NCBI GenBank assembly: GCA_017549025.1
Contig: JAFYWB010000055.1
Span: forward strand, 18,943 to 82,942
Direction: 5' to 3'
Source of the DNA: Treponema sp.
Lineage (GTDB): Bacteria > Spirochaetota > Spirochaetia > Treponematales > Treponemataceae
DNA length: 64,000 nucleotides
A program made the position numbers and the translations under genes. Each line of letters begins with the position of its first letter. Position 1 is the stretch's first letter. Positions 2,566-56,483 of this stretch are shown here, in pieces. The notes under the pieces are model-generated. The model was given only the letters and a program-made list of their open reading frames with translations. It ran no database searches and was not told the origin of the DNA.

Positions 2566-5500
2566 TTATGCTTCGGCACTTTCGTCGGGGTGGCGGCCAA
2601 CGGGAGCGTTAGACAGCATGAGCTTCAGGCGGTTCAGCTGGTTTACCTCGCTGGCACCTGGGTCATAGTCAATGGCGGAGATATTTGATTCAGGGAAGCG
2701 GTGACGCAATTCCTTGATCATGCCTTTTCCAGTAACGTGGTTGGGCAAGCAGGCAAAGGGCTGCACACAGGCAATGCTGGGCACGCCAGCGTGAATCAGC
2801 TCCACCATTTCCGCAGTAAGGAACCAGCCCTCACCAGTAATATTTCCCAGCTGCACGATATCGTCCACACCCTTCATCAGGTCGTAGATGGAGGCAGGTG
2901 GGTCAAATCGCTTGCTCTTGCCCAGCACCTTCTTGATGCGGCGACGATACAGCTCCAAGAACCAAATCAGGCGACGGGCATTACGCTCGGTCTTCTTTGG
3001 GAAGGCCAATTCCTCGTGACGGAAAATTCCTGTGGAGAAGGTGTAGAACAAAAAGTCTGCCAAGTCGGGCATAACGCACTCTGCCCCTTCTCGCTCGATA
3101 ACACGGCAAATGTCGTTGTTGGCGGTGGGATGGAACTTTACCAAAATCTCACCAACTACACCAACACGAGGCTTTTTCACATTCAGCAGGGGCAGTGCAT
3201 CGAATTCGTCTACAATGCCTTGAATCAGCTTGTGGTATTTTCGTACCGACAATGATTTAAGCTGCACCTCTGCCCGACCGCTCCACTTTTCATAGAGGGC
3301 ATCTGCGGAACCAGAAGTGGCCTCGTAGGGTCGAGTTCGGTACAGTACCCGCATCAGCACGTCACCAGTCATCAAGGCCATCATGGCACGGTGCAGCAGG
3401 GCGGGAGTAATCTTAAATCCAGGCTGAGATTCCAGTCCAGAAGCGTTTAATGAAAGCACTGGCACCTGTTCCAGTCCAGCGTCCACCAAAGCACGGCGGA
3501 TAAAGCCGATGTAGTTGGTGGCTCGACATCCACCACCCGTCTGGGTAATCAGCAGGCTCACGTGGTCCAGGTCGTACTTTCCAGACTTAAGGGCAGCAAT
3601 CATCTGGCCAGCCACCAAGATGGAAGGATAGCAGGCATCGTTATTGACATACTGCAAGCCTGTTTCCACCGCCATGGTATCTACCTCTGGCAAGATGACA
3701 AAATTGTAGCCGGAATACTCAAAGGCCTTTTGAACCAAGCGGAAGTGAATGGGAGACATCTGGGGAGCGATGATGGTGTGAGTTTTCTTCATCTCCTTGG
3801 TGAAAATCTGTCGCTTGTAGGCTGCAGAAATAGACACAGGCTTTTTCTGCTGGCGGCGTTCCCGCTCCCGAACAGCTGCAATCAAGCTGCGGATACGGAT
3901 TCGCACGGCACCAAGGTTGGAGCCTTCGTCAATCTTAATGAGGGTGTACATTCTGCCGTGGGCTTGGAGGATTTCGTCCACCTGATCTGAGGTAACGGCA
4001 TCAAGACCACAGCCAAAGCTGGTAAGCTGCACCAATTCCAAGCTGGGGAAGCCTGCCACAAAGGAGGCTGCACGATACAGGCGATTGTGGTAGGTCCACT
4101 GGTCCACAATCCGCAGGGGTCGCTCCACGCTTCCCAGGTGGGCAACGGAGTCCTCGGTAAAGACGGCTAGTCCAAGGCCAGACACCATTTCAGGAATACC
4201 GTGGTTGATTTCTGGGTCCAGATGATAAGGACGACCAGACAGTACGATTCCTCGTCCACCCATAATAATCATCTGGGTTAGGGCTTCTTCTCCTGCCAGT
4301 TGGGTGTCACGACGGAATTTCTCCATTTCCTTCCAAGCAGCATCAACAGCCTTTGTGATTTCTTCCTGAGGAATATCGAATTTTTCCTTCAATTCCTCGT
4401 GGAGACGCACGGCTAACCTGTCCTTGTCGTAAATGGGCAGGAAGGGATTCATAAAGGTAATGGAAGGATCACGGCGAAGCACCTCCACGTTGTTGCGAAG
4501 CACCTCAGGATAGCTGGTAACGATGGGACAGTTGTAGTGGTTTCCTGCTCCCTCGTCTTCCTTAATTTCATAAGGAGCACAGGGATAGAAGATAAACTTA
4601 ACTCCCTGCTTCAGCAAGGCTTCCACATGGCCGTGGGCAATCTTTCCCGGATAACACACGGACTCAGAAGGAATGGTTTCCAGTCCCATTTCGTAAACAG
4701 AGCGACTGGAACGGGGAGAAAGGCGAACACGGAAGCCCAGCTCAGTGAAGATGGTAAACCACAGAGGATAATTTTCGTACAGGTTCAAGACACGGGGAAG
4801 CCCCACATCTCCACGGGGAGCATTTTCTGGGCTCAGGGGCTTGTAATAGGAGAAAAGCCGCTTGTATTTCCACTCAAAAAGGTTAGGAAGCTTCTTTTCT
4901 CCATGGTCTGCGCCAGTGGAGGTGTTGTGCTTGTTGCTGGCATCCACAATCTTCAGCTCATCACCTAACTCGGCACCACGCTCGCAGCGGTTTCCCGTGA
5001 GGAAGCGACTTGCTTTGCGGGTGTCTCCTGCTCCAGCGGTAAAGGTGTTGATGGTCATGAGACAGTTGTTGTTACACTTACCGCAGCGACGAAGCTCCAA
5101 GTCTACGTTAAAAGAATCGAGCTGCTCTGGAGTGGCAATGTTGGAGCGAATGGTGGGAGGCACAAAGGTAGCCTCATCTACTCCCACAGGAGGACGAATC
5201 ATATCCTTCCACTGGTCCAGGGCAATGAGGGCGGCACCATAGGCACCCATCAAGCCAGCCACATCGGGACGGAATACGTTTACGCCAGAAATCTTTTCAA
5301 AGGCCCGTAGAACAGCGTCATTGTTAAAGGTTCCACCCTGCACTACAACCTTTGTTCCGATTTCGGAGGCACGACGCAGCTTAATAACCTTGAACAGAGC
5401 ATTTTTGATAACAGAATAGGAAAGACCTGCAGAAATATCTGCAACGGTGGCACCTTCTTTTTGAGCCTGCTTTACACGACTGTTCATGAACACGGTACAG

Positions 5501-7089
5501 CGGCTTCCCAAGTCCACGGGGCGTTCTGCCAACAGGGCCTTACGGCTAAATTCCCGCACGTCCATGCCCAAAGAGCGGGCAAAGTTGTCCAAGAAGCTTC
5601 CGCAGCCAGAAGAACAGGCTTCGTTCAGCTGGATTGAGGTGATGGCTCCATCCTTCATTCTCAGGCACTTCATGTCCTGGCCACCAATGTCCAAAAGGAA
5701 TTCAACCCCAGGCACAAAGAAGTCGGCAGCTCGATAGTGGGTAATGGTTTCTACCTCACCAGAGTCAACACCTAAGGCAGCTTGAAAAAGGGCCTCACCG
5801 TAACCAGTGGAAACAGAGCGGGCAATGTAGGCATCCTTGGGAATCTGGGTATACAAATCTTTCAGCACCCGCACAGCCAAATCCACAGGATTTCCAGCGT
5901 TTACATCGTAGAAACGCCACAAAATACGGCCAGCGGCATCAATAAGCACCGCCTTTGTGGTGGTGGAGCCTGCATCCAATCCTAGGAACACAGGGCCTGA
6001 GGCAGTCTCTAAGTTGGCGGAGGCAGCCATTTCCTCTGCATGGCGACGGTGAAATTCTTCAAGCTCGTGCTCGTTTCGGAACAGAGGCTCCAAACGCTGC
6101 ACCTCGCTCATTTCTGCGTCCACCAGATTTTTCAGGCTTTCACGGAATTCTCCCAGCAAGGGGAAGGGCTGCTGCTTGTCTGCAGACTGAACACAGCTTA
6201 AGCTTCGTTCAGCAGAAAAGGCTGCACCAGCGGCAACAAAAAGCTGGGAATCAGGAGGAGTTACGATTTCCTTTTCCGTAAGCTCCAAGGTGGTAATAAA
6301 GCGATGGCGCAGCTGGTCCAAAAAGTGGAGGGGGCCGCCCAAAAAGGCTACATTTCCACGAATGGGCTTTCCACAGGCCAAGCCGGAAATGGTCTGGCTT
6401 ACCACAGCCTGAAAGATACTGGCGGCAATGTCCTCACGGCGAGCACCTTCATTAATGAGGGGCTGCACGTCAGTTTTGGCAAATACACCACAGCGGGCGG
6501 CGATAGGATAGATGGTGGAAGCCCCCTTGGCCATTTCGTTTAGGCCAGGAGCATCGGTTTCCAGCAGGGCAGCCATCTGGTCAATGAAGGCACCAGTTCC
6601 ACCAGCACAGGAGCCGTTCATGCGCTGCTCCACGCCGCCAGAAAAATAGGTAATCTTTGCATCCTCACCACCCAGCTCGATTACAACGTCGGTGTGGGGA
6701 ATGAGCTTTTGTACCGCAGTGGTGGAAGCTACAACCTCTTGGATAAAGGGGATGTTGAGCCACTGGGACACGGCAAAGCCACCGGAACCAGTTACCTTAA
6801 CACTTAAGGGCTGACGAGCACCTGCAGGAAGCTCCTTTTCCAGCTTGTCCAAGGCTCGCTTTACCACATCCATAATGGTACCACGAATATCTGCCAGGTG
6901 ACGCTTGTATTCGCTGTAGCAAATATTATCATTTTCGTCCAAAGCCACGAACTTTACCGTGGTGGACCCTACGTCGATTCCAACTCGCAATGGTGGAACT
7001 GAAGGCTTGAAGGCAGTTGGCTTGAAGCTTGCAGACTCCAAACCAAAGTTTTTTGCAGAGGTTGTATTGGCAGCAGAGTGCAAATCCAT
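2566..7089 (-). CDS. Giant acyl-CoA dehydratase activase-related fusion protein (two BcrAD/BadFG-type ATPase modules plus dehydratase-like/DUF2229-like C-terminal modules)
   Basis: 1507-aa ORF. Two acetate/sugar-kinase-fold ATPase starts ([14 protein letters not shown] and [14 protein letters not shown]). Cys cluster [13 protein letters not shown]. Long C-terminal region like the activase-associated domains in clostridial/spirochete proteins. AAGGGA RBS upstream of the ATG. Confidence 0.85.
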
Positions 7090-7326
7090 AGAAAAATCCC
7101 TTTTTGTAGTTATCGTAAGGAATTCAGCAAATCATCTAACTCTATTCACTGCAGGTACATGCACTGAATCAAGCTAAAGGGTTCACCAAAGCCCCGGAGG
7201 TTCCCTTTTTAAAGATACAAACCCCCCATACTATAAAATACCTTCTAAAGTGTAATGAAAATGAAAAAAAGTTGCTATAAGCTAACACTACATTTATGTC
7301 GTATTTACCAATTTTTTACAAAAGAG

Positions 7327-7351
7327 CTGATAGATGGGGCTGGATAAAAAA
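7327..7351. repeat. Terminal fragment of the dispersed GGGGAAC-rich repeat family (right-end motif only)
   Basis: TAGATGGGGCTGGATAAAAAA (7331-7351) is identical to 31922-31942. It closely matches 51566-51586. Confidence 0.6.
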
Positions 7352-7355
7352 TTAT

Positions 7356-7440
7356 AAAAAAAATCCAGTTTTTCTGGAAAAAACGCATTTTTTTGCACGT
7401 TCAAACCTATAATCTATATGTAAGAAAAAAATCTTGGAGG
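7356..7440 (+). promoter_or_regulatory. Conserved promoter/5'UTR cassette upstream of Rpn-family gene (copy 1)
   Basis: About 85 bp, roughly 90% identical by eye to 52010-52093: AAAAAATCCAG-TTTTTCTGGAAAAAACGCATTTTTTTGCACGTTCAAACCTATAATCTATATGTAAGAAAAAAATCTTGGAGG. Contains TATAAT at 7408-7413 and a GGAGG RBS. Confidence 0.55.
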
Positions 7441-7445
7441 AAAAG

Positions 7446-8339
7446 ATGAACAGCAAACACCCCAACACCGAAAATCGTAAGCACAAGGACTCTCTCTTTG
7501 TGGATTACTTTTCCAAGGACAGGGACTGGAAACAACACTTTCTTTCTCTGTACAACGCCCTCCACGGTACTGATTTACAAGTTGAAACCACAAGATTGGA
7601 ACGGGTTAACTTGGAGCAAGTCTTGTACATGGACTACTACAACGACATTGCAGTTATGGTAAATGACCAGTTCATCATGATGATTGAACACCAGTCCACC
7701 ATCAATCCTAACATGCCACTACGACTGTTGGAATACGTGACTCGAATCTACGGCAACATGGTGGATTCAAAATCCAAGTTTTCAAACCAACTGATTCCTC
7801 TAGCTAAGCCAGAATTCATTGTGTTTTACACCGGCAAGGAAAATATCCCACCAGAATGCTATCTTTCCCTATCAGATGCATTTAAGCTGAACCACGTCCC
7901 AAACTCGGAACTCACACTTGAATTAGTGGTAAAAGTGTGTAAAATTAAAAGTACAAATCCAAGTCCAGTGGTACATAATTGTCCTGACTTGGAACAATAC
8001 GTACAGTTTCTCAAGCTCATAGACGAAGCGAAATCAGATGGGCAGTCACAGCCACTCACAAGAGCCATTCAAAAAGCTGTACGTCACAATGTGCTAAAAG
8101 ATTACTTGGAGAGAAAAGGAGGTGAAGTTTTGAGTATTTTGATGACTGAATATGACTATGCCACCGACATTGCAGTAAAACAAGAAGAAGCTTATGCTAT
8201 TGGCCTAGAACAAGGAGCCTACCAAAAAGCTTTGGAAACAGCAAGAATGTTTCTTTCCTACGGTGATTCTCCAGAGAAAGTCGCCATTTGCACAAACCTT
8301 CCGCTGGATCTGGTGATGGAGCTTAGGCAAAAAGCTTAA
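7446..8339 (+). CDS. Rpn-family recombination-promoting nuclease / putative transposase (YhgA-like PD-(D/E)XK)
   Basis: Motif MMIEHQSTINPNMPLRLLEY matches the hEHQS...M..Rll.Y core of this family. ATG 7446 follows GGAGGA; the track start 7434 is a TTG inside the RBS. The C-terminal tail GLEQGAYQKALETARMFLS...TNLPLDLV is shared with the paralog at 52087. Confidence 0.75.
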   Translation: MNSKHPNTENRKHKDSLFVDYFSKDRDWKQHFLSLYNALHGTDLQVETTRLERVNLEQVLYMDYYNDIAVMVNDQFIMMIEHQSTINPNMPLRLLEYVTRIYGNMVDSKSKFSNQLIPLAKPEFIVFYTGKENIPPECYLSLSDAFKLNHVPNSELTLELVVKVCKIKSTNPSPVVHNCPDLEQYVQFLKLIDEAKSDGQSQPLTRAIQKAVRHNVLKDYLERKGGEVLSILMTEYDYATDIAVKQEEAYAIGLEQGAYQKALETARMFLSYGDSPEKVAICTNLPLDLVMELRQKA

Positions 8340-31626: not shown

Positions 31627-31944
31627 CTCACGAACATCAGCCCAGGAGACTGAATCCCAGCCACATCCCGGGAAGCAGGGGAACAGGAGCAGCATCTCGA
31701 GTGGTGGGGAACACAAATTTATCTAGGGAATCTGGGGAACCCTACCCCGCCTCGCACTTCGCTAACGCTCACAGTTCGGCTGGGCAGGGGACCTCCCCAG
31801 TTTCCCAGAATAATTTTTGTGGGTGTTCCCCACCACTCTGGCTACTATTCGTGAGGTTCCCCTGCTTCCCAGACTATTGCAGGTGGGGCTTCAATTTCAC
31901 GGTCTACTGTTCGATAACTGGTAGATGGGGCTGGATAAAAAAAA
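31627..31944. repeat. Dispersed GGGGAAC-rich palindromic repeat element, copy A
   Basis: Shares both termini and several internal modules with 51271-51588. Perfect internal inverted repeats at 31670-31684/31856-31870 and 31699-31714/31823-31838. Confidence 0.8.
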
Positions 31945-31974
31945 TCCCAGCTGAAACAAATTGCTTCAACTGGG
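31937..31974 (-). terminator. Rho-independent terminator of adk
   Basis: Minus strand: CCCAGTTGAA...TTCAGCTGGG stem (31965-31974 / 31946-31955), then a T8 run that is also the A-run at the right end of repeat copy A. Confidence 0.65.
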
Positions 31975-32000
31975 AACGTATAGCTGATTCAACGAAAAAC

Positions 32001-34617: not shown

Positions 34618-34950
34618 CTATGGATTGAGGCTTTGGCGAACCTCTTGAGCAATGACCTCTTTCAGGCGGCTCATGATGTGGTCGGTAATTTCTTGAGAAA
34701 ATTGCTGGCTGCCATTATGACGCAGGTTTTCTGGGGAGCCGTCCTTGAGGAAAAGTTGGGCTGGGTCAATTTCCAGAATCTTTGCCATCTGGTCTATTAC
34801 ATCTGGCGGAGGGAAGGAGTTGCCACCTTCGATACAATTGATGTAATTGTAGCCCTTGTTCAGGTAGACGGATAAATCCTTTTGGGTCAGCCCTCGTTTT
34901 TTGCGGAAATAACGGAGGTTGGCAATGAAGGTTTGTTGCAGAGACATCAC
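34618..34950 (-). CDS. XRE-family helix-turn-helix transcriptional regulator
   Basis: LRYFRKKRGLTQKDLSVYLNKGYNYINCIEGG is a classical HTH_3/XRE motif. 110 aa. Confidence 0.8.
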   Translation of the reverse strand: MMSLQQTFIANLRYFRKKRGLTQKDLSVYLNKGYNYINCIEGGNSFPPPDVIDQMAKILEIDPAQLFLKDGSPENLRHNGSQQFSQEITDHIMSRLKEVIAQEVRQSLNP

Positions 34951-50209: not shown

Positions 50210-51190
50210 TTATTTTTTCTCCTGATGTTTACAGTAAGCTCCCCAGGTGGATGAAACTAAGGTATCCACATCGGAATGGGTAGCTGACCAGTTCAAGGTT
50301 TCACGAGCGAAGGCAGAGGTAGCATAGAGGCAAGCGGGATCTCCTGCACGGCGACCAACAAAGTCTGCGGGGATTTCCTTGCCAGTAATGCGACGAGCTG
50401 CTTCCAACATCTCTTTAACAGTAACACCTGTCTCACTACCAAGGTTAACCTTAAGGCTTGTTTTTTTAGTAGAAATGTATTCCAGAGCCTTTACGTGGGC
50501 AATAGCCAGGTCTGTAACGTGAACATAGTCTCGGATACAAGTACCATCACGGGTGTCGTAGTCGGTACCGAATACCTGCAGCTTCTGGCGCATTCCGCTG
50601 GCAACCTCCATGATTACAGGCAACAGGTTGGCAGGATTCTGCTCCAATCCACAGGGGAAGCCGTCGGGGTCGTAGCCAGCGGCATTGAAATAGCGAAGTG
50701 CAGCAAACTTCAGTCCCTTCAGCTGGTCGTACCAGTCCATGAACCGCTCAATTTCCAGCTTGGTAAAGCCGTAGTAGTTCTCTGGGTTCTTGGGGTGATC
50801 CTCATTGATGGGAAGATACTGAGGCTCTCCGAAAACGGCGGCAGAGGAAGAGAATACCATGTTGAGGCATCCATGCTTTACTGCTGCATTCATGAGATTG
50901 AGGGTTCCAGTAATGTTGTTGACGGAATATTTTTCTGGGGCTGTCATGGACTCACCAGCTGCCTTGAAGGCTGCCAAGTGAATGAATGCGTCAAAGCCAC
51001 GACTAAAAGCGGCATCGAGATTTTCTGGATGAAGAATATCTCCTGCGATAAAGTCATTTTCTGGGAAGAGGTTCTGCAAAAGTCCAGAAGAAAGGTTATC
51101 AAAAACCGTTACCTTGTGACCAGCCTTCATCAATTCCTTTACTACGTGGCTACCGATATAGCCTGCTCCACCAACAACTAAAACCTTCAT
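50210..51190 (-). CDS. galE: UDP-glucose 4-epimerase
   Basis: VLVVGGAGYIGSH Rossmann motif, YGFTKLE (YxxxK). 326 aa. AAGGAG RBS. Confidence 0.93.
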   Translation of the reverse strand: MKVLVVGGAGYIGSHVVKELMKAGHKVTVFDNLSSGLLQNLFPENDFIAGDILHPENLDAAFSRGFDAFIHLAAFKAAGESMTAPEKYSVNNITGTLNLMNAAVKHGCLNMVFSSSAAVFGEPQYLPINEDHPKNPENYYGFTKLEIERFMDWYDQLKGLKFAALRYFNAAGYDPDGFPCGLEQNPANLLPVIMEVASGMRQKLQVFGTDYDTRDGTCIRDYVHVTDLAIAHVKALEYISTKKTSLKVNLGSETGVTVKEMLEAARRITGKEIPADFVGRRAGDPACLYATSAFARETLNWSATHSDVDTLVSSTWGAYCKHQEKK

Positions 51191-51237
51191 GTCTTACTCC
51201 TTATCTATGGAAAGTAATATTTGTCTTTATAAGAATC

Positions 51238-51266
51238 AGTATACCCCAAGGGAGGGAAAGTAGCAA
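51238..51266 (-). promoter_or_regulatory. Candidate sigma70 promoter of galE
   Basis: On the minus strand: TTGCTA (51266-51261), 17-nt spacer, TATACT (51243-51238). Confidence 0.45.
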
Positions 51267-51270
51267 GTTT

Positions 51271-51588
51271 CTTCACGAACATCATCCCGGGAGGCTGAAT
51301 CCCGAGCCACATCCCGGGAAGCAGGGGAACCAAATTTATCTCGGGAAACAGGGGAATAGGAACATCATCTCTGTGGGCTGGGGAACCCTACCCCGCCTTA
51401 CGCTTCGCAAGCTCAGAGTTCGGCTGGGCAGGGAACTCCCCAGCCCCATGTATAATTTTCGTAGGTTCCCCAGTTTCCCAGAATAATTTTTGTAGAGGGT
51501 TCCCCTGCTCCCCAAGCTATTGCTGGGCGGGGCTTCAAGTTCACGGTCTACTACTCGATAGCTAGTAGATGGGGCTGGATATAAAAAC
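51271..51588. repeat. Dispersed GGGGAAC-rich palindromic repeat element, copy B
   Basis: Termini match copy A. Left: CACGAACATCA.CCC.GGAG.CTGAATCCC.AGCCACATCCCGGGAAGCAGGGGAAC. Right: GGGGCTTCAA.TTCACGGTCTACT..TCGATA.CT.GTAGATGGGGCTGGATA. Internal inverted repeat 51316-51330 / 51499-51513 has 1 mismatch. Confidence 0.8.
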
Positions 51589-51669
51589 TCCCCCGTTACA
51601 GATGGAGCTGAAACGAGGGAGTTTGCCTCCTACACAGGACATTTTCTGGGGAAAATTTATGAATTATGA

Positions 51670-51961
51670 TGCCACACGGATTCGGAAAATCTACGATTTT
51701 CCTAGGCACAGATAAGTTTCTTTTGCTTACAGTGTGTAAGAATTTCCTTTGCTTACACACTGTAAGAGTCCAATCTTACACTGTGTAAGATTGCTTTCTT
51801 ACACAAGGTAAGATTACTATCTTACACATAGTAAGATTCAGCTAATACTACAAGTCCAATTACCCCAGATTTTGCGTAGCAAAATCGAATCTGGCTTTCA
51901 GCCAGTTCTGTAAGGAAGTGATTGGAATAGCGGCTCACGCCGCCTGCGAATCCGTGTGGCA
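51670..51961. repeat. Noncoding module bounded by a perfect 15-nt inverted repeat
   Basis: TGCCACACGGATTCG (51670-51684) and CGAATCCGTGTGGCA (51947-51961). Internal hairpins GGAAAATC-TAC-GATTTTCC (51684-51702) and GATTTTGC-GTA-GCAAAATC (51868-51886). Confidence 0.7.
51726..51836. repeat. Array of five palindromic 16-bp sites (CTTAC-N6-GTAAG) at 23-bp periodicity
   Basis: 51726 CTTACAGTGTGTAAGA; 51752 CTTACACACTGTAAGA; 51775 CTTACACTGTGTAAGA; 51798 CTTACACAAGGTAAGA; 51821 CTTACACATAGTAAGA. Confidence 0.8.
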
Positions 51962-52009
51962 ATCTCCCCATAGCACATTCCTCAAGGCCAGCCCATGGAA
52001 AACTTTCAC

Positions 52010-52093
52010 AAAAAATCCATTTTTTTCTGGAAAAACGCATTTTTTTTCACCTTCAAACCTATAATCTATATGTAAAGAAAAAAAACTTGGAGG
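52010..52093 (+). promoter_or_regulatory. Conserved promoter/5'UTR cassette upstream of Rpn-family gene (copy 2)
   Basis: Near-identical to 7356-7440. TATAAT at 52060-52065. GGAGG RBS. Confidence 0.55.
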
Positions 52094-52983
52094 TAAGATT
52101 GCTAACAGAAGCAGAATTACAGAAAAAGTGGGAAAGTTTGACTTTTACCGATAACTTTATCTTTTCTCGTGTCATGCACGATGAACACATTTGTCGTCAG
52201 GTGGTGGAGTTGATTCTTGGAGTACGGATTGGAAAGATACGTTATCTTTCAGCCCAAGATGAACATAAAACCGACCCAGATTCCATGCGAATCATCATGG
52301 ATGTATTCTTACGAGATGAAAATCGCATTATTAACGTAGAAGTTCAAACTGGTCACAAAAAGGAACTACCTAAACGAAGCCGTTACTATCAAAGCGTGGC
52401 AGATGTGTCCACAACTTCAACAGGAACCAAGTATCGAGATCTACCAGAAAACATCCTCATATTCATCTGTACATTCGATCCATTCGACAGAGATTTTCCC
52501 CGTTACACATTTGAATATACCTGCAAAGAAGCCCAGCACCAGCTCAAACTAAAGGACGGCTCACTCCGCATTTTTTTGAACACTAAGGCCACAAAGCTTT
52601 CAACCCTTGACCAGAAGTTACAAGCATTTTATCATTATTTACAGAAGGGTATTGCTGAATCTGGTTTAACACAAGAAATTTTCAACAAAATCACCACCCT
52701 AAAAAATAATTCCATTGAAAGGAGACATTACATGACACTGGCACTAAAAATGGCTGATATAGAATACGATGCATATGAAAATGGTTTCGAGAGAGGCCAT
52801 GAAGCTGGACTCCAAGCTGGCCTCCAACAAGGAATTGAACAAGGGATTGAACAAGGTCTTGAACAAGGAGCCTACCAAACCAAGCTAGAAACAGCAAAAA
52901 ATCTGCTTTCCATGAACTTCACTCCAACGCAAGTAGCCCAAGGCACCAATCTCCCACTGGACGTGGTACAGAATTTACTGTAA
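52087..52983 (+). CDS. PD-(D/E)XK nuclease family transposase-like protein (Rpn-type paralog)
   Basis: DNFIFSRVM..., IMDVFLRDENRIINVEVQTGHKKELPKRSRYYQS (D...E.Q core). Tail GLEQGAYQTKLETAKNLLS...TNLPLDVV. No ATG near the RBS, so the start is probably TTG 52099 (or TTG 52087 as in the track). Confidence 0.75.
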   Translation: MEVRLLTEAELQKKWESLTFTDNFIFSRVMHDEHICRQVVELILGVRIGKIRYLSAQDEHKTDPDSMRIIMDVFLRDENRIINVEVQTGHKKELPKRSRYYQSVADVSTTSTGTKYRDLPENILIFICTFDPFDRDFPRYTFEYTCKEAQHQLKLKDGSLRIFLNTKATKLSTLDQKLQAFYHYLQKGIAESGLTQEIFNKITTLKNNSIERRHYMTLALKMADIEYDAYENGFERGHEAGLQAGLQQGIEQGIEQGLEQGAYQTKLETAKNLLSMNFTPTQVAQGTNLPLDVVQNLL

Positions 52984-54925: not shown

Positions 54926-55387
54926 ATGAAAGAAGCTATTCCCACAAAGCGATTTCTGTTCATTTGCTACGAAATCCTGAGACTTTTTTTTATCTTCACC
55001 TTTCGTCCAGAATTCGACATTGACATGCTGCCTGCCTCTTGGTATATGGCTGCCCCACTGTTGATTCTGCCCTTAGTTTTGGTCTTTTTTTTCTATCAAG
55101 CACAGCAGGAGGAAGAAAAAAAGGCTTACGGCAGAATCTATGCCTACAGCAAGTTCCTTTCCATTGCGGGCTTTTTCCCCTTTATGAAGGTGGCCCTAGT
55201 TCCTGCCTTTGAGCATGCAAAACTTACCAGTTATTATTCCTTGAAACGCATGGGAATTTTACTGATATTTTTATTGATAGATGTTATACTAGGATTGATA
55301 TTCCTTTTAGATAAAGATAAGGAAGAAGACTCACAGCAAGATCAGGGAGATGAAATTCATGCAGATAATTCCAGTAGCCAGTGGTAA
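54926..55387 (+). CDS. Small polytopic membrane protein with acidic C-terminal tail, unknown function
   Basis: Four hydrophobic segments. Overlaps the start of the downstream ATPase gene. Confidence 0.5.
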   Translation: MKEAIPTKRFLFICYEILRLFFIFTFRPEFDIDMLPASWYMAAPLLILPLVLVFFFYQAQQEEEKKAYGRIYAYSKFLSIAGFFPFMKVALVPAFEHAKLTSYYSLKRMGILLIFLLIDVILGLIFLLDKDKEEDSQQDQGDEIHADNSSSQW

Positions 55388-56483
55388 AGGTGGTGTAGGT
55401 AAAAGCCTTATTTCAGCAAACTTAGCCATTGCCCTTGGCCAGGCCGACAAAAAGGTTATTCTGGCAGACTTGGATTTAGGTGCCTCAAACTTGCATCTTG
55501 TTATTGGCCATCAGGCTCCAAAACAGGGCATAGGAACCTATCTGTCTGGACAGGCAAAGTTCGAGGACATCCTTCTGGATTCCGAGTACAAGAACGTACG
55601 GTTTATTCCCGGTGACTCTGAAATTCCAGGACTAACTGCCTTAAAAATCAGCCAGAAGAACGATTTGGTGAAAAAGCTGCAAAAGCTGGATGCCGATTAT
55701 CTGATTCTTGACTTGGGAGCTGGAACCCATCTCACCATTTTGGACTTGTTCCTGCTATCTCCCCAGGGAATCGTAGTGACAGCTCCCACCGTTACCGCCA
55801 CCTTGAACGGCTATCTGTTCTTGAAAAATGCAGTGTTCCGCATGATGTACAACACCTTCAAGAAAAACTCCAAGGCATATAATTATTTGGAGCAGCTGAA
55901 ATCAGATGCCACCTCCTTGCAGCGACTCTACATTCCCAAGCTGGTGGAAAACATTGCCGCCATTGACCCACAAAGTGCCGCTCTGTTCAAGCACCGCATG
56001 AATCAATTTAGACCACGACTTGTGCTGAACATGATTGACGAGCCACGTGATGCAGATAAATCCATGAAAATCCGCCGTTCCTGTAACGAGTATTTGGGAT
56101 TGGAGCTGGAGCATCTCGGTATTATCTATCGTGACAGCCTGCAGGACAAGGCTCTGGAATCACGGCTTCCCATCATTGTGTATAAGCCACAATCTTTGTT
56201 GGCTCAATCAATCTACCGTATTGCAGACAAGGTAATGGCTTCTCAAACCTTAACCTTTGACAATGCCGTAGACAGCTTTGAACAGGCTGAAGCAGAAGCC
56301 GCCGAGGATTTGGAAACAAAGATGTCCTACGTGGAAGACCTGCTAGGAAGCGGTGCCCTTACCACAGCAGACTTGGCAGAAATCATCAAATCACAGCAGT
56401 ATGACTTGACCCAGCTCCGAAAGGAAAATCAGTTGCTAAAGTCCAAGCTTTTGAAGGCTGCTGCCCAAGGATTTAAGCTCTAA
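55359..56483 (+). CDS. MinD/ParA-family P-loop ATPase with C-terminal coiled-coil extension
   Basis: IIPVASGKGGVGKSLISANLAIALGQADKKVILADLDLGASN (deviant Walker A). Confidence 0.8.
   Translation: MQIIPVASGKGGVGKSLISANLAIALGQADKKVILADLDLGASNLHLVIGHQAPKQGIGTYLSGQAKFEDILLDSEYKNVRFIPGDSEIPGLTALKISQKNDLVKKLQKLDADYLILDLGAGTHLTILDLFLLSPQGIVVTAPTVTATLNGYLFLKNAVFRMMYNTFKKNSKAYNYLEQLKSDATSLQRLYIPKLVENIAAIDPQSAALFKHRMNQFRPRLVLNMIDEPRDADKSMKIRRSCNEYLGLELEHLGIIYRDSLQDKALESRLPIIVYKPQSLLAQSIYRIADKVMASQTLTFDNAVDSFEQAEAEAAEDLETKMSYVEDLLGSGALTTADLAEIIKSQQYDLTQLRKENQLLKSKLLKAAAQGFKL

Follow-up and report, generated by a model that had tools for sequence, protein, structure and literature searches.

What is a head-to-tail run of five short palindromes doing between an epimerase gene and a nuclease gene of Treponema? 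The array lies in a 64,000-nucleotide stretch (the window) of Treponema sp. contig JAFYWB010000055.1 (assembly GCA_017549025.1), where an original prediction, made from the letters alone, had taken it for repeated binding sites of a dimeric DNA-binding protein and compared it with iterons and partition centromeres. We find that the array is a dispersed orphan copy, strain-variable and dispensable among strains, and that the repeat family to which it belongs, found in gut and rumen Treponema, has not been described before. Relatives of the array recur just 5' of genes for small Xre-type helix-turn-helix (HTH) proteins. We put the probability that the arrays are multi-site binding platforms for an Xre-type dimer, with the window copy as a dispersed orphan, slightly above one half (about 0.55).

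The array and its family in Spirochaetaceae

The sequences, starts and start-to-start spacings (26, 23, 23 and 23 bp) of the five sites were exactly as predicted. The predicted formula CTTAC-N6-GTAAG, however, had no match in the whole window; the real core is CTTAC-N5-GTAAG (15 bp), and the 16-mers reported earlier consist of this core and the A that follows it. The N5 core occurs exactly five times in the window, always inside the array, against an expected count of 0.05, and five occurrences were reached in none of 100 dinucleotide-preserving shuffles. Most window units extend the dyad to (T)CTTACA-N3-TGTAAG(A), and the spacers of 8-11 bp between neighbouring cores are partly conserved. The half-site centres are 10 bp apart, which places both half-sites on the same side of the helix.

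Further copies, which the original prediction had suggested looking for in related genomes, were found throughout Treponema/Spirochaetaceae. One genome per species was scanned for two adjacent CTTAC/GTAAG sites and metagenomes for at least three units; both scans demanded exact arms, and the loci were seen as 8-kb tiles around the pattern matches. The genome scan yielded about 25 array loci in at least 15 metagenome-assembled genomes (MAGs) from rumen and gut, and the metagenome scan 25 further loci. Spirochaete arrays have a 23-24-bp period and 2-16 units each, with several loci per genome, and all are intergenic. The consensus of 108 units is t-CTTAC-AC-w-n-k-GTAAG-ATTG-gct (tandem unit tCTTACAC..GTAAGATTG). 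One Treponema sp. tile (L092) carries a near-identical array at a different locus. In the literature on Treponema intergenic repeats, DUF4469 proteins and tandem Xre operator arrays we came across no account of this family.

Species with unalignable flanks still share the TTAC/GTAA arms, while centres and spacers drift, which favours sequence-specific recognition by a dimer. Arrays also show a bias towards 5' regions: of 34 loci, 17 are flanked by divergent genes, 14 by tandem genes and three by convergent ones. Within the arrays L045 and L060 the units are homogenised. The L045 array (3756-4119; likewise L105) has 16 units, 14 of them identical, and follows an intrinsic-terminator-like hairpin between convergent genes.

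Linkage to Xre-type HTH genes

The original prediction stated that no regulator gene adjoins the array. This is true at the window locus, but in related genomes an HTH regulator gene stands next to it. Clustering of the open reading frames (ORFs) flanking the arrays gave three recurrent neighbours: HTH_3 proteins of 101-127 amino acids, HU-like/DUF4469 proteins of 256-273 amino acids and Rpn-family proteins. The first two form a cassette, in which a gene for an Xre HTH protein (~110 amino acids) is followed, sometimes after a gene for an ImmA-like M78 peptidase, by a gene for an HU-like/DUF4469 protein (256 amino acids). Using a hidden Markov model of the cassette HTH protein on 47 array-ascertained loci, we obtained nine matching ORFs within 600 bp of arrays (50.6 kb) and two in the remaining 253.8 kb. 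HTH ORFs are therefore ~23-fold denser near arrays than in this internal control (binomial P=3.9e-6).

In a reverse test, DUF4469 homologues were fetched by protein sequence alone, and four of them, from different species, were examined on their contigs. An HTH_3 gene lay 5' of the DUF4469 gene in 4/4 contigs, with an M78 peptidase gene between them in 2/4, and an array was present 50-140 bp 5' of the HTH start codon in every case. Three of the four cassettes have identical CTTAC/GTAAG arms, with four units in L138 (two in L139, from the same species), seven in L141 and two in L137 (T. bryantii). In the fourth, L135, all five units follow a symmetric variant, GTTAC-N5-GTAAC; this array, at 1180-1290 of L135/L136, lies 5' of an HTH-M78-DUF4469 cassette beside a Cas9 gene.

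An array was always present 5' of the cassettes (L129, L089, L053, L086, L044, L060 and L135-L143), whose proteins are only about 60% identical among species that keep the arm sequences. The genes around the cassette (Cas9, DNA methylase, RHS, PIN and RadC genes) change in every species, so that cassette and array together form a self-contained module. Our literature search returned no account of an HTH-DUF4469 cassette. HTH genes also adjoin arrays without DUF4469, at L057, L149, L153 and L154. At three such loci (L153 645-1927, L154 350-1676 and L057 1116-2394) the order is HTH_3 gene, array, gene for a 92-residue protein and PIN-domain gene; the pair under the array looks like a VapBC-type toxin-antitoxin system.

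The cassette HTH protein is homologous to the ICEBs1 repressor ImmR, SinR, the 434 repressor and C.BclI, dimers that bind palindromes of 14-18 bp. In the mechanism that we regard as most likely, each unit would bind one dimer of a small Xre-type (HTH_3) repressor, and the array would serve as a cooperative multi-operator platform. The home position that the family keeps is next to such HTH genes, usually just 5' of the HTH-gene promoter, with the HU-like/DUF4469 gene downstream and sometimes the ImmA-like peptidase gene in between. Orphan arrays are scattered in intergenic, mostly 5' regions within mosaic, strain-variable sequence, and unit number changes by whole units, probably through slippage or unequal recombination.

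Recognition by a dimeric protein is favoured by the 10-bp distance between half-site centres together with the homology to dyad-binding dimeric repressors. It is also favoured by symmetric changes, namely the single arm change seen (L135) and an inner-position change in MAG ERR1278103_bin.5 (CAC..GTG to CCG..CGG), although such symmetry would fit hairpins equally well. Unit variants are genome-specific and common to the cassette and orphan arrays of one MAG: CTTACCG-N-CGGTAAG occurs throughout all four arrays of ERR1278103_bin.5, of both kinds, and a variant with a 37-bp spacer occurs in all three array loci of RGIG8276. TTACA/TGTAA-type inverted repeats around the -35 box of cassette promoters point the same way. 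Arm conservation, the GTTAC..GTAAC change and the HTH linkage support the core of the earlier idea, namely that the repeats are recognized by a dimeric DNA-binding protein and are not mere slippage products.

Several observations weigh against an Xre-type platform. A period of 23 bp does not correspond to an integral number of helical turns, and same-face cooperativity between neighbouring dimers is therefore not expected, and the demand for exact arms makes the arm invariance in the scanned loci partly an ascertainment effect. The cassette promoters also contain other palindromes (AATTATCAT..ATGATAATT), and it may be these that serve as the genuine autoregulatory operators. Arrays can face either way with respect to the cassette gene (L129 versus L053), and the HTH recognition helix is the same in L129 (CTTAC) and L135 (GTTAC), which makes this pair uninformative on covariation of protein and site. 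Long, internally identical arrays such as L045 look like recent neutral expansions. The genes facing orphan arrays encode ABC transporters, a metallo-beta-lactamase-fold protein, Dam methylase, XseA, PARG, CheR, PfkB, FtsH and biotin synthase, unrelated housekeeping functions among which no coherent regulon was found. Neither the window nor its species tile contained a cassette-type HTH gene, only a weak match at 34717-34947; the HTH match at L092 is an unrelated HTH-cupin regulator. While the facts about the family are well supported, the identity of the binder, binding as such and the function of the window copy are what we infer.

A different protein could use the arrays as cis sites, as RAYT transposases use repetitive extragenic palindromic (REP) elements, in recombination, mobilization or chromosome structuring. 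The HU-like/DUF4469 protein comes into question since its gene lies 3' of arrays in at least ten cassettes and since the L143 and L044 arrays stand directly 5' of a DUF4469 promoter. The protein combines HU-DNA_bdg/HU-HIG and DUF4469 (Ig-like) domains and matches PDB 4FMR, an HU-Ig relative in which the Ig domain occupies the DNA saddle and whose clade is predicted not to be sequence-specific (PMC5499826). That prediction, and the persistence of HTH linkage where DUF4469 is missing, favour the HTH protein as binder. The original prediction named the adjacent Rpn-type protein as a candidate. Rpn proteins are annotated as recombination-promoting nucleases/putative transposases, and at the window locus as well as at L092, L114, L119, L073, L146, L164 and L167 an array is found 150-600 bp from such a gene. 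By tblastn this adjacency was seen in some array-selected loci, but none of four independently retrieved homologue loci (79-88% identity) had an array, although all kept the Rpn promoter block. The other Rpn-like gene in the window (7446-8339) and the same-species contig L007 are array-free as well, and the unit search of the window found no unit 3' of its first Rpn gene. We therefore reject the Rpn gene as the partner of the array and consider either of these proteins a quite improbable binder.

The second Rpn-like gene belongs to a different subfamily, 65-69% identical to the L114/L119 genes, and its leader (7347-7431) has no array 5' of it. The motif GAAAAACGCATTTTTTT..CCTATAA(T/G)..TGTAAG is conserved 5' of every Rpn homologue examined. 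The Rpn protein next to the array has 1023 database clusters at E<=1e-20, with more than 120 at >=74% identity, nearly all from rumen or gut metagenomes; the size and fine diversity of this set suggest massive paralogy or rapid turnover in Treponema.

The window copy and its mosaic surroundings

The array occupies a chromosomal 896-bp gap (51191-52086) and lies 251 bp 5' of the PD-(D/E)XK (Rpn) gene, in agreement with the gap length and the distance of about 250 bp given earlier. Because it overlaps the promoter of neither neighbour, any regulatory effect is uncertain. If the platform reading is right, this copy would receive its HTH protein in trans, from a gene elsewhere in the genome, and could be a decoy, a roadblock or nothing. 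Features of the locus are listed in Table 1. A half-unit, GGTAAGATTGCT at 52094-52105, overlaps the ribosome-binding site and start codon of the Rpn gene; it is conserved in none of L007, L001 and L168, and we regard it as coincidence.

Table 1. Features at the array locus, in window coordinates
Feature	Position	Strand	Basis or remark
Tandem array of five 23-bp units (first 26 bp)	51717-51838		Window repeat analysis and 108-unit consensus
Unit 1 core, CTTACAGTGTGTAAG	51726-51740		Motif search
Unit 2 core, CTTACACACTGTAAG, exact reverse complement of unit 1	51752-51766		Motif and inverted-repeat search
Unit 3, CAATCTTACAC-T-GTGTAAGATTG (core 51775-51789)	51771-51793		Perfect 11+1+11 palindrome filling one 23-bp period
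Unit 4 core, CTTACACAAGGTAAG	51798-51812		Motif search
Unit 5 core, CTTACACATAGTAAG	51821-51835		Motif search
Left arm of the bracketing 15-nt inverted repeat, TGCCACACGGATTCG	51670-51684		Perfect repeat; also recurs in other Spirochaetaceae loci
Right arm of the same repeat, CGAATCCGTGTGGCA	51947-51961		Complement of left arm
Small palindrome/hairpin module, GGAAAATC-TAC-GATTTTCC	51684-51702		Kept in L114, L119 and L107 by a compensatory T-A to C-G change
Small palindrome/hairpin module, GATTTTGC-GTA-GCAAAATC	51868-51886		Sequence and folding
Mosaic segment carrying the array, ~420 bp	51588-52009		Absent from same-species L007 and from paralogous flank copies
Separate dispersed repeat, GGGGAACC-rich, ~320 bp, abutting the array segment	51273-51592		Paralogue at 31628-31948
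NAD-dependent epimerase/dehydratase gene, conserved left neighbour	50210-51190	-	Used to fetch same-species contigs
Rpn-family promoter and leader block, ..GAAAAACGCATTTTTTTT..CCTATAAT..GGAGG	52010-52086	+	88.5% identical to 7347-7431; also 5' of array-free homologues
Gene for Rpn-family recombination-promoting nuclease/putative transposase	52087-52983	+	PF12784 (PDDEXK_2); NCBIfam TIGR01784, 115.6 bits

Many contigs from rumen and buffalo-gut metagenomes encode an identical epimerase protein; the ten compared here (L001-L010) share DNA that is 96-98% identical to the window, and we treated them as the same species. The variation in unit number for which the original prediction proposed to compare strains is present: L003 and L010 have five units, L001 and L009 have three through an exact 46-bp, two-unit deletion, and L002 and L004-L008 have none. 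The array is thus present in four contigs and absent from six. Absence from close relatives had been named in advance as evidence against the array, and it does count against an essential role specific to this locus.

To the right of ~51315-51585 the strains diverge wholly, some having a tRNA-synthetase-like gene in place of the Rpn gene. L002 and L004-L006 have a different neighbour gene, with breakpoints inside the adjacent 320-bp repeat, and L008 has unrelated filler; none of these five offers a clean empty site, and only L007 and the paralogous flanks were informative. L007 retains the end of the 320-bp repeat and the Rpn promoter block and lacks 51588-52009. A hairpin, GGCTGGAT-A(n)-ATCCAG, is uninterrupted at 7326-7400 and 31912-31975 of the window and in L168, whereas at the array locus the array segment splits its A-run loop. 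We conclude that the array lies in inserted, mosaic, strain-variable DNA, of which these sites and L007 are the empty forms. The ends of the segment are uncertain by a few bases, and its left 80 bp may be a separate module.

The 320-bp repeat abounds in GGGGAACC/GGTTCCCC motifs and in inverted repeats of its own and ends in the same hairpin. Its two copies (51273-51592 and 31628-31948) are 77.5% identical, and a partial end copy lies near 7331-7345. Strain rearrangement breakpoints within it, 5' of the epimerase gene, are at ~51315, 51424 and 51578-51585.

The original prediction had overlooked that the array is enclosed by a perfect 15-nt inverted repeat. Together with the small hairpins this repeat recurs, variously recombined, in L073, L107, L114, L118 and L119, including a 114-bp mini-element (L114) that has only one degenerate unit with flanking modules. 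Such modules are optional, and most arrays lack them. At L114, the region 6600-7260, 5' of an Rpn-like gene, is a patchwork of the 15-nt repeat and of GGCGGCG..GCCGCC and CTGGCC..GGCCAG hairpins; its modules are duplicated in tandem blocks, which indicates that they recombine freely.

These modules raise the question whether the element acts as a transcribed structured RNA or as single-stranded DNA hairpins, with the 15-nt repeat closing a multi-hairpin domain of ~290 nt that might serve, for example, as a protein sponge or stabilizer. The region 51665-51966 folds at -127.7 kcal/mol with the inverted repeat as closing stem, and its z-score of -11.6 is extreme, as any series of palindromes would give. 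For single units the folding energy is -3.2 to -7.1 kcal/mol (unit 3, as DNA hairpin, -7.1 kcal/mol), but stems with only five invariant pairs are weak. A flanking hairpin is kept by a compensatory change (GGAAAATC/GATTTTCC to GGAAAACC/GGTTTTCC), and a closing-stem substitution in L001, L009 and L010 stays paired, as G-U, only on the + strand. The arms of the units, however, are conserved in sequence and do not covary freely. Cassette arrays stand 5' of the promoter in either orientation, and no promoter- or terminator-like site frames the element, unit 3 itself excepted. Rfam gave no hit at the gathering score and, at E=10, only chance-level hits (E>=1.1) in 51150-52150. We consider a role as RNA or hairpins very improbable.

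The comparison with replication-origin iterons, or with the partition centromere that an integrated plasmid or phage would bring, was prompted by form: five tandem direct units at 23-26 bp fit the 17-23-bp units of iterons, and head-to-tail dyads with a period of about two helical turns resemble sopC/parC-type centromeres and iteron sets. Form alone is not decisive. A gene for a MinD/ParA-type ATPase (55350-56483) does lie 3.5 kb from the array, yet three genes of unrelated kind stand between them, and no such gene recurs beside the arrays at the ~50 array loci. The adjacent genes encode the epimerase and the Rpn nuclease; no Rep family was found among nine flanking proteins, and no ParB gene is present. 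No DnaA box occurs in 51191-52086 with up to one mismatch, and cumulative GC skew, proposed earlier as a check for origin behaviour, runs monotonically through 48-56 kb with no switch at the array. By blastn, 51588-52009 had no match in PLSDB (72,556 plasmids) or INPHARED (50,697 phages), and a pattern scan of viral contigs returned only five unrelated site pairs. With several arrays per chromosome and none in most same-species contigs, an origin or centromere is scarcely credible, and we reject these readings. The MinD/ParA-type protein is a P-loop ATPase of 377 amino acids whose gene overlaps the end of an unannotated 153-residue ORF (54926-55387).

Strain variability raises a further question, namely whether the array is simply a selfish or neutral dispersed mosaic repeat of the REP, bacterial interspersed mosaic element (BIME), BOX or MITE (miniature inverted-repeat transposable element) kind. 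Units and modules would then be dispersed through recombination or transposition in trans, with slippage accounting for their expansion; there would be no dedicated binder, and the closeness to HTH genes would reflect co-location in variable regions. Presence and absence among strains, whole-unit changes (also between L138 and L139), the ~420-bp segment that interrupts a hairpin loop intact in paralogues, the varied combinations of the flanking modules, the number of loci per genome, the homogenized units and the unrelated neighbours of orphan arrays are all as expected of such a repeat. Terminal modules around variable central tandem units also match what is generally known of BOX architecture.

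Traits of the established classes are shared only in part. The arrays are clustered short extragenic palindromes in many copies, as REP elements and BIMEs are, but no Y1 transposase gene adjoins them and only the three convergent loci fit a 3' or intra-operon preference, so that the 5' bias of the arrays stands against the 3' preference of REP elements. MITEs occur as near-identical copies with an autonomous partner, whereas array copies are mosaic and no transposase-type partner was identified in the 8-kb tiles. Core spacers of 8-11 bp that are partly conserved do not fit a CRISPR array, with its 23-50-bp repeats and unique spacers of similar length. With respect to the segment that L007 lacks, the arms of the 15-nt inverted repeat are set 82 bp and 48 bp in from the ends, hence not at the insertion boundaries, and no clear target-site duplication was seen, although at an A-run junction a duplication would be indistinguishable from the original sequence.

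A purely selfish or neutral repeat is most clearly opposed by the cassettes. The position of the array relative to the HTH-DUF4469 promoter is kept in all four homology-retrieved cassettes despite non-conserved surroundings, HTH genes are enriched beside arrays, and arm sequence is conserved beyond mere pairing potential. We therefore hold this explanation to be unlikely, though to be taken seriously. For orphan arrays it is compatible with the Xre-type platform, and the two conflict only on whether a protein recognizes the units. Orphan arrays are best read as dispersed copies of the cassette-type binding array that spread with mosaic sequence; as to their role, targets, decoys and passengers are all possible.

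Relation to known systems

The genome scan also gave hits outside the spirochaetes. In Bacillaceae/Planococcaceae (L014, L017, L031, L049, L079) and Rhodobacteraceae (L011, L026, L056), a pair of CTTAC(Y)-N3-(R)GTAAG palindromes, with starts 23-28 bp apart and 8-13 bp separating the cores, lies directly 3' of a TTGACA -35 box. Such pairs resemble ordinary two-operator promoters and have no relation to the spirochaete arrays. Bacteroidota have arrays resembling CTTAC-N5-GTAAG with 12 units at 21 bp (L084 1601-1846) and ten at 24 bp (L013 3143-3374), and one Prevotellaceae MAG has a 22-bp unit at five loci (L022, L024, L123, L125, L128). Beside the Bacteroidota arrays that were checked we found neither an HTH nor a DUF4469 gene, and for this reason we keep them apart from the spirochaete family.

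Among known systems, the operators of Xre (Cro/CI) repressors (434 OR1-3, ImmR, SinR, C-boxes) share with the arrays the 15-bp dyad and the half-sites one helical turn (~10 bp) apart. For the family, not at the window locus, they also share the linkage of sites to the promoter of a homologous small HTH_3 gene, in some cassettes together with an ImmA-like M78 peptidase gene. In contrast to the two to four operators known to lie over a promoter, the arrays comprise 2-16 units at 23-24 bp, stand 5' of the -35 box, vary in unit number among strains and include copies far from HTH genes; binding to them is putative.

The BOX elements of Streptococcus pneumoniae (boxA-boxB(n)-boxC) are dispersed, stably folding and noncoding, as the array is, with partly complementary ends and a variable tandem centre (five, three or, in L114, about one array unit). 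They have no sequence relation to it: the array unit is palindromic and 23 bp long, whereas that of BOX is 45 bp, the terminal modules of the array are optional, and its family is tied to a specific gene cassette. REP/BIME sequences with their RAYT genes resemble the arrays as clustered short extragenic palindromes mixed with other motifs and as a home gene with many orphan clusters. Array units, however, are A+T-rich and head-to-tail, those of REP G+C-rich and alternating, and where REP elements have a tyrosine transposase as partner the arrays have an HTH repressor and an HU-like protein.

Plasmid centromeres (F sopC with 12 units of 43 bp, R1 parC, pBtoxis tubC) are likewise tandem head-to-tail dyads of variable unit number; unlike them, the window array has no partition ATPase/adaptor operon, is chromosomal, is one of several per genome and is dispensable. 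The 256-residue cassette protein has the HU-HIG and DUF4469 domains of the Bacteroidota HU-HIG clade (4FMR), whose genes have been reported without conserved gene linkage (PMC5499826), while in Treponema the gene consistently goes with an Xre HTH gene and a 5' palindromic array. By analogy, the mechanism would be most like an Xre operator set, and the genomic behaviour, with its insertion and copy-number polymorphism, resembles that of BOX/BIME mosaic repeats, so that the arrays may combine two known kinds of element.

A bolder proposal, to which we give little weight, is that the arrays and the Xre-HTH/(ImmA-like)/HU-Ig cassette form an unrecognized spirochaete system in which a cassette protein would recognize arrays genome-wide and mark, silence or mobilize regions. 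The arrays would be seeded by mosaic mobile sequence, often beside hypervariable Rpn genes and rearrangement breakpoints. Such a system might be REP/RAYT-like or silencer-like, built on a repressor and an HU-like protein with no transposase.

For the window locus the message is modest: the array is neither an origin nor a centromere, and strains can do without it. Arrays at strain-variable spots with changing unit number may provide typing markers for rumen metagenomes. If the Xre-type platform is real, gut and rumen Treponema would carry an undescribed cis element, tandem 23-bp palindromes tied to two uncharacterized DNA-binding genes. DUF4469/HU-HIG proteins would then gain their first conserved genomic partner and cis element, and arrays and cassette would offer a directly testable protein-DNA pair.

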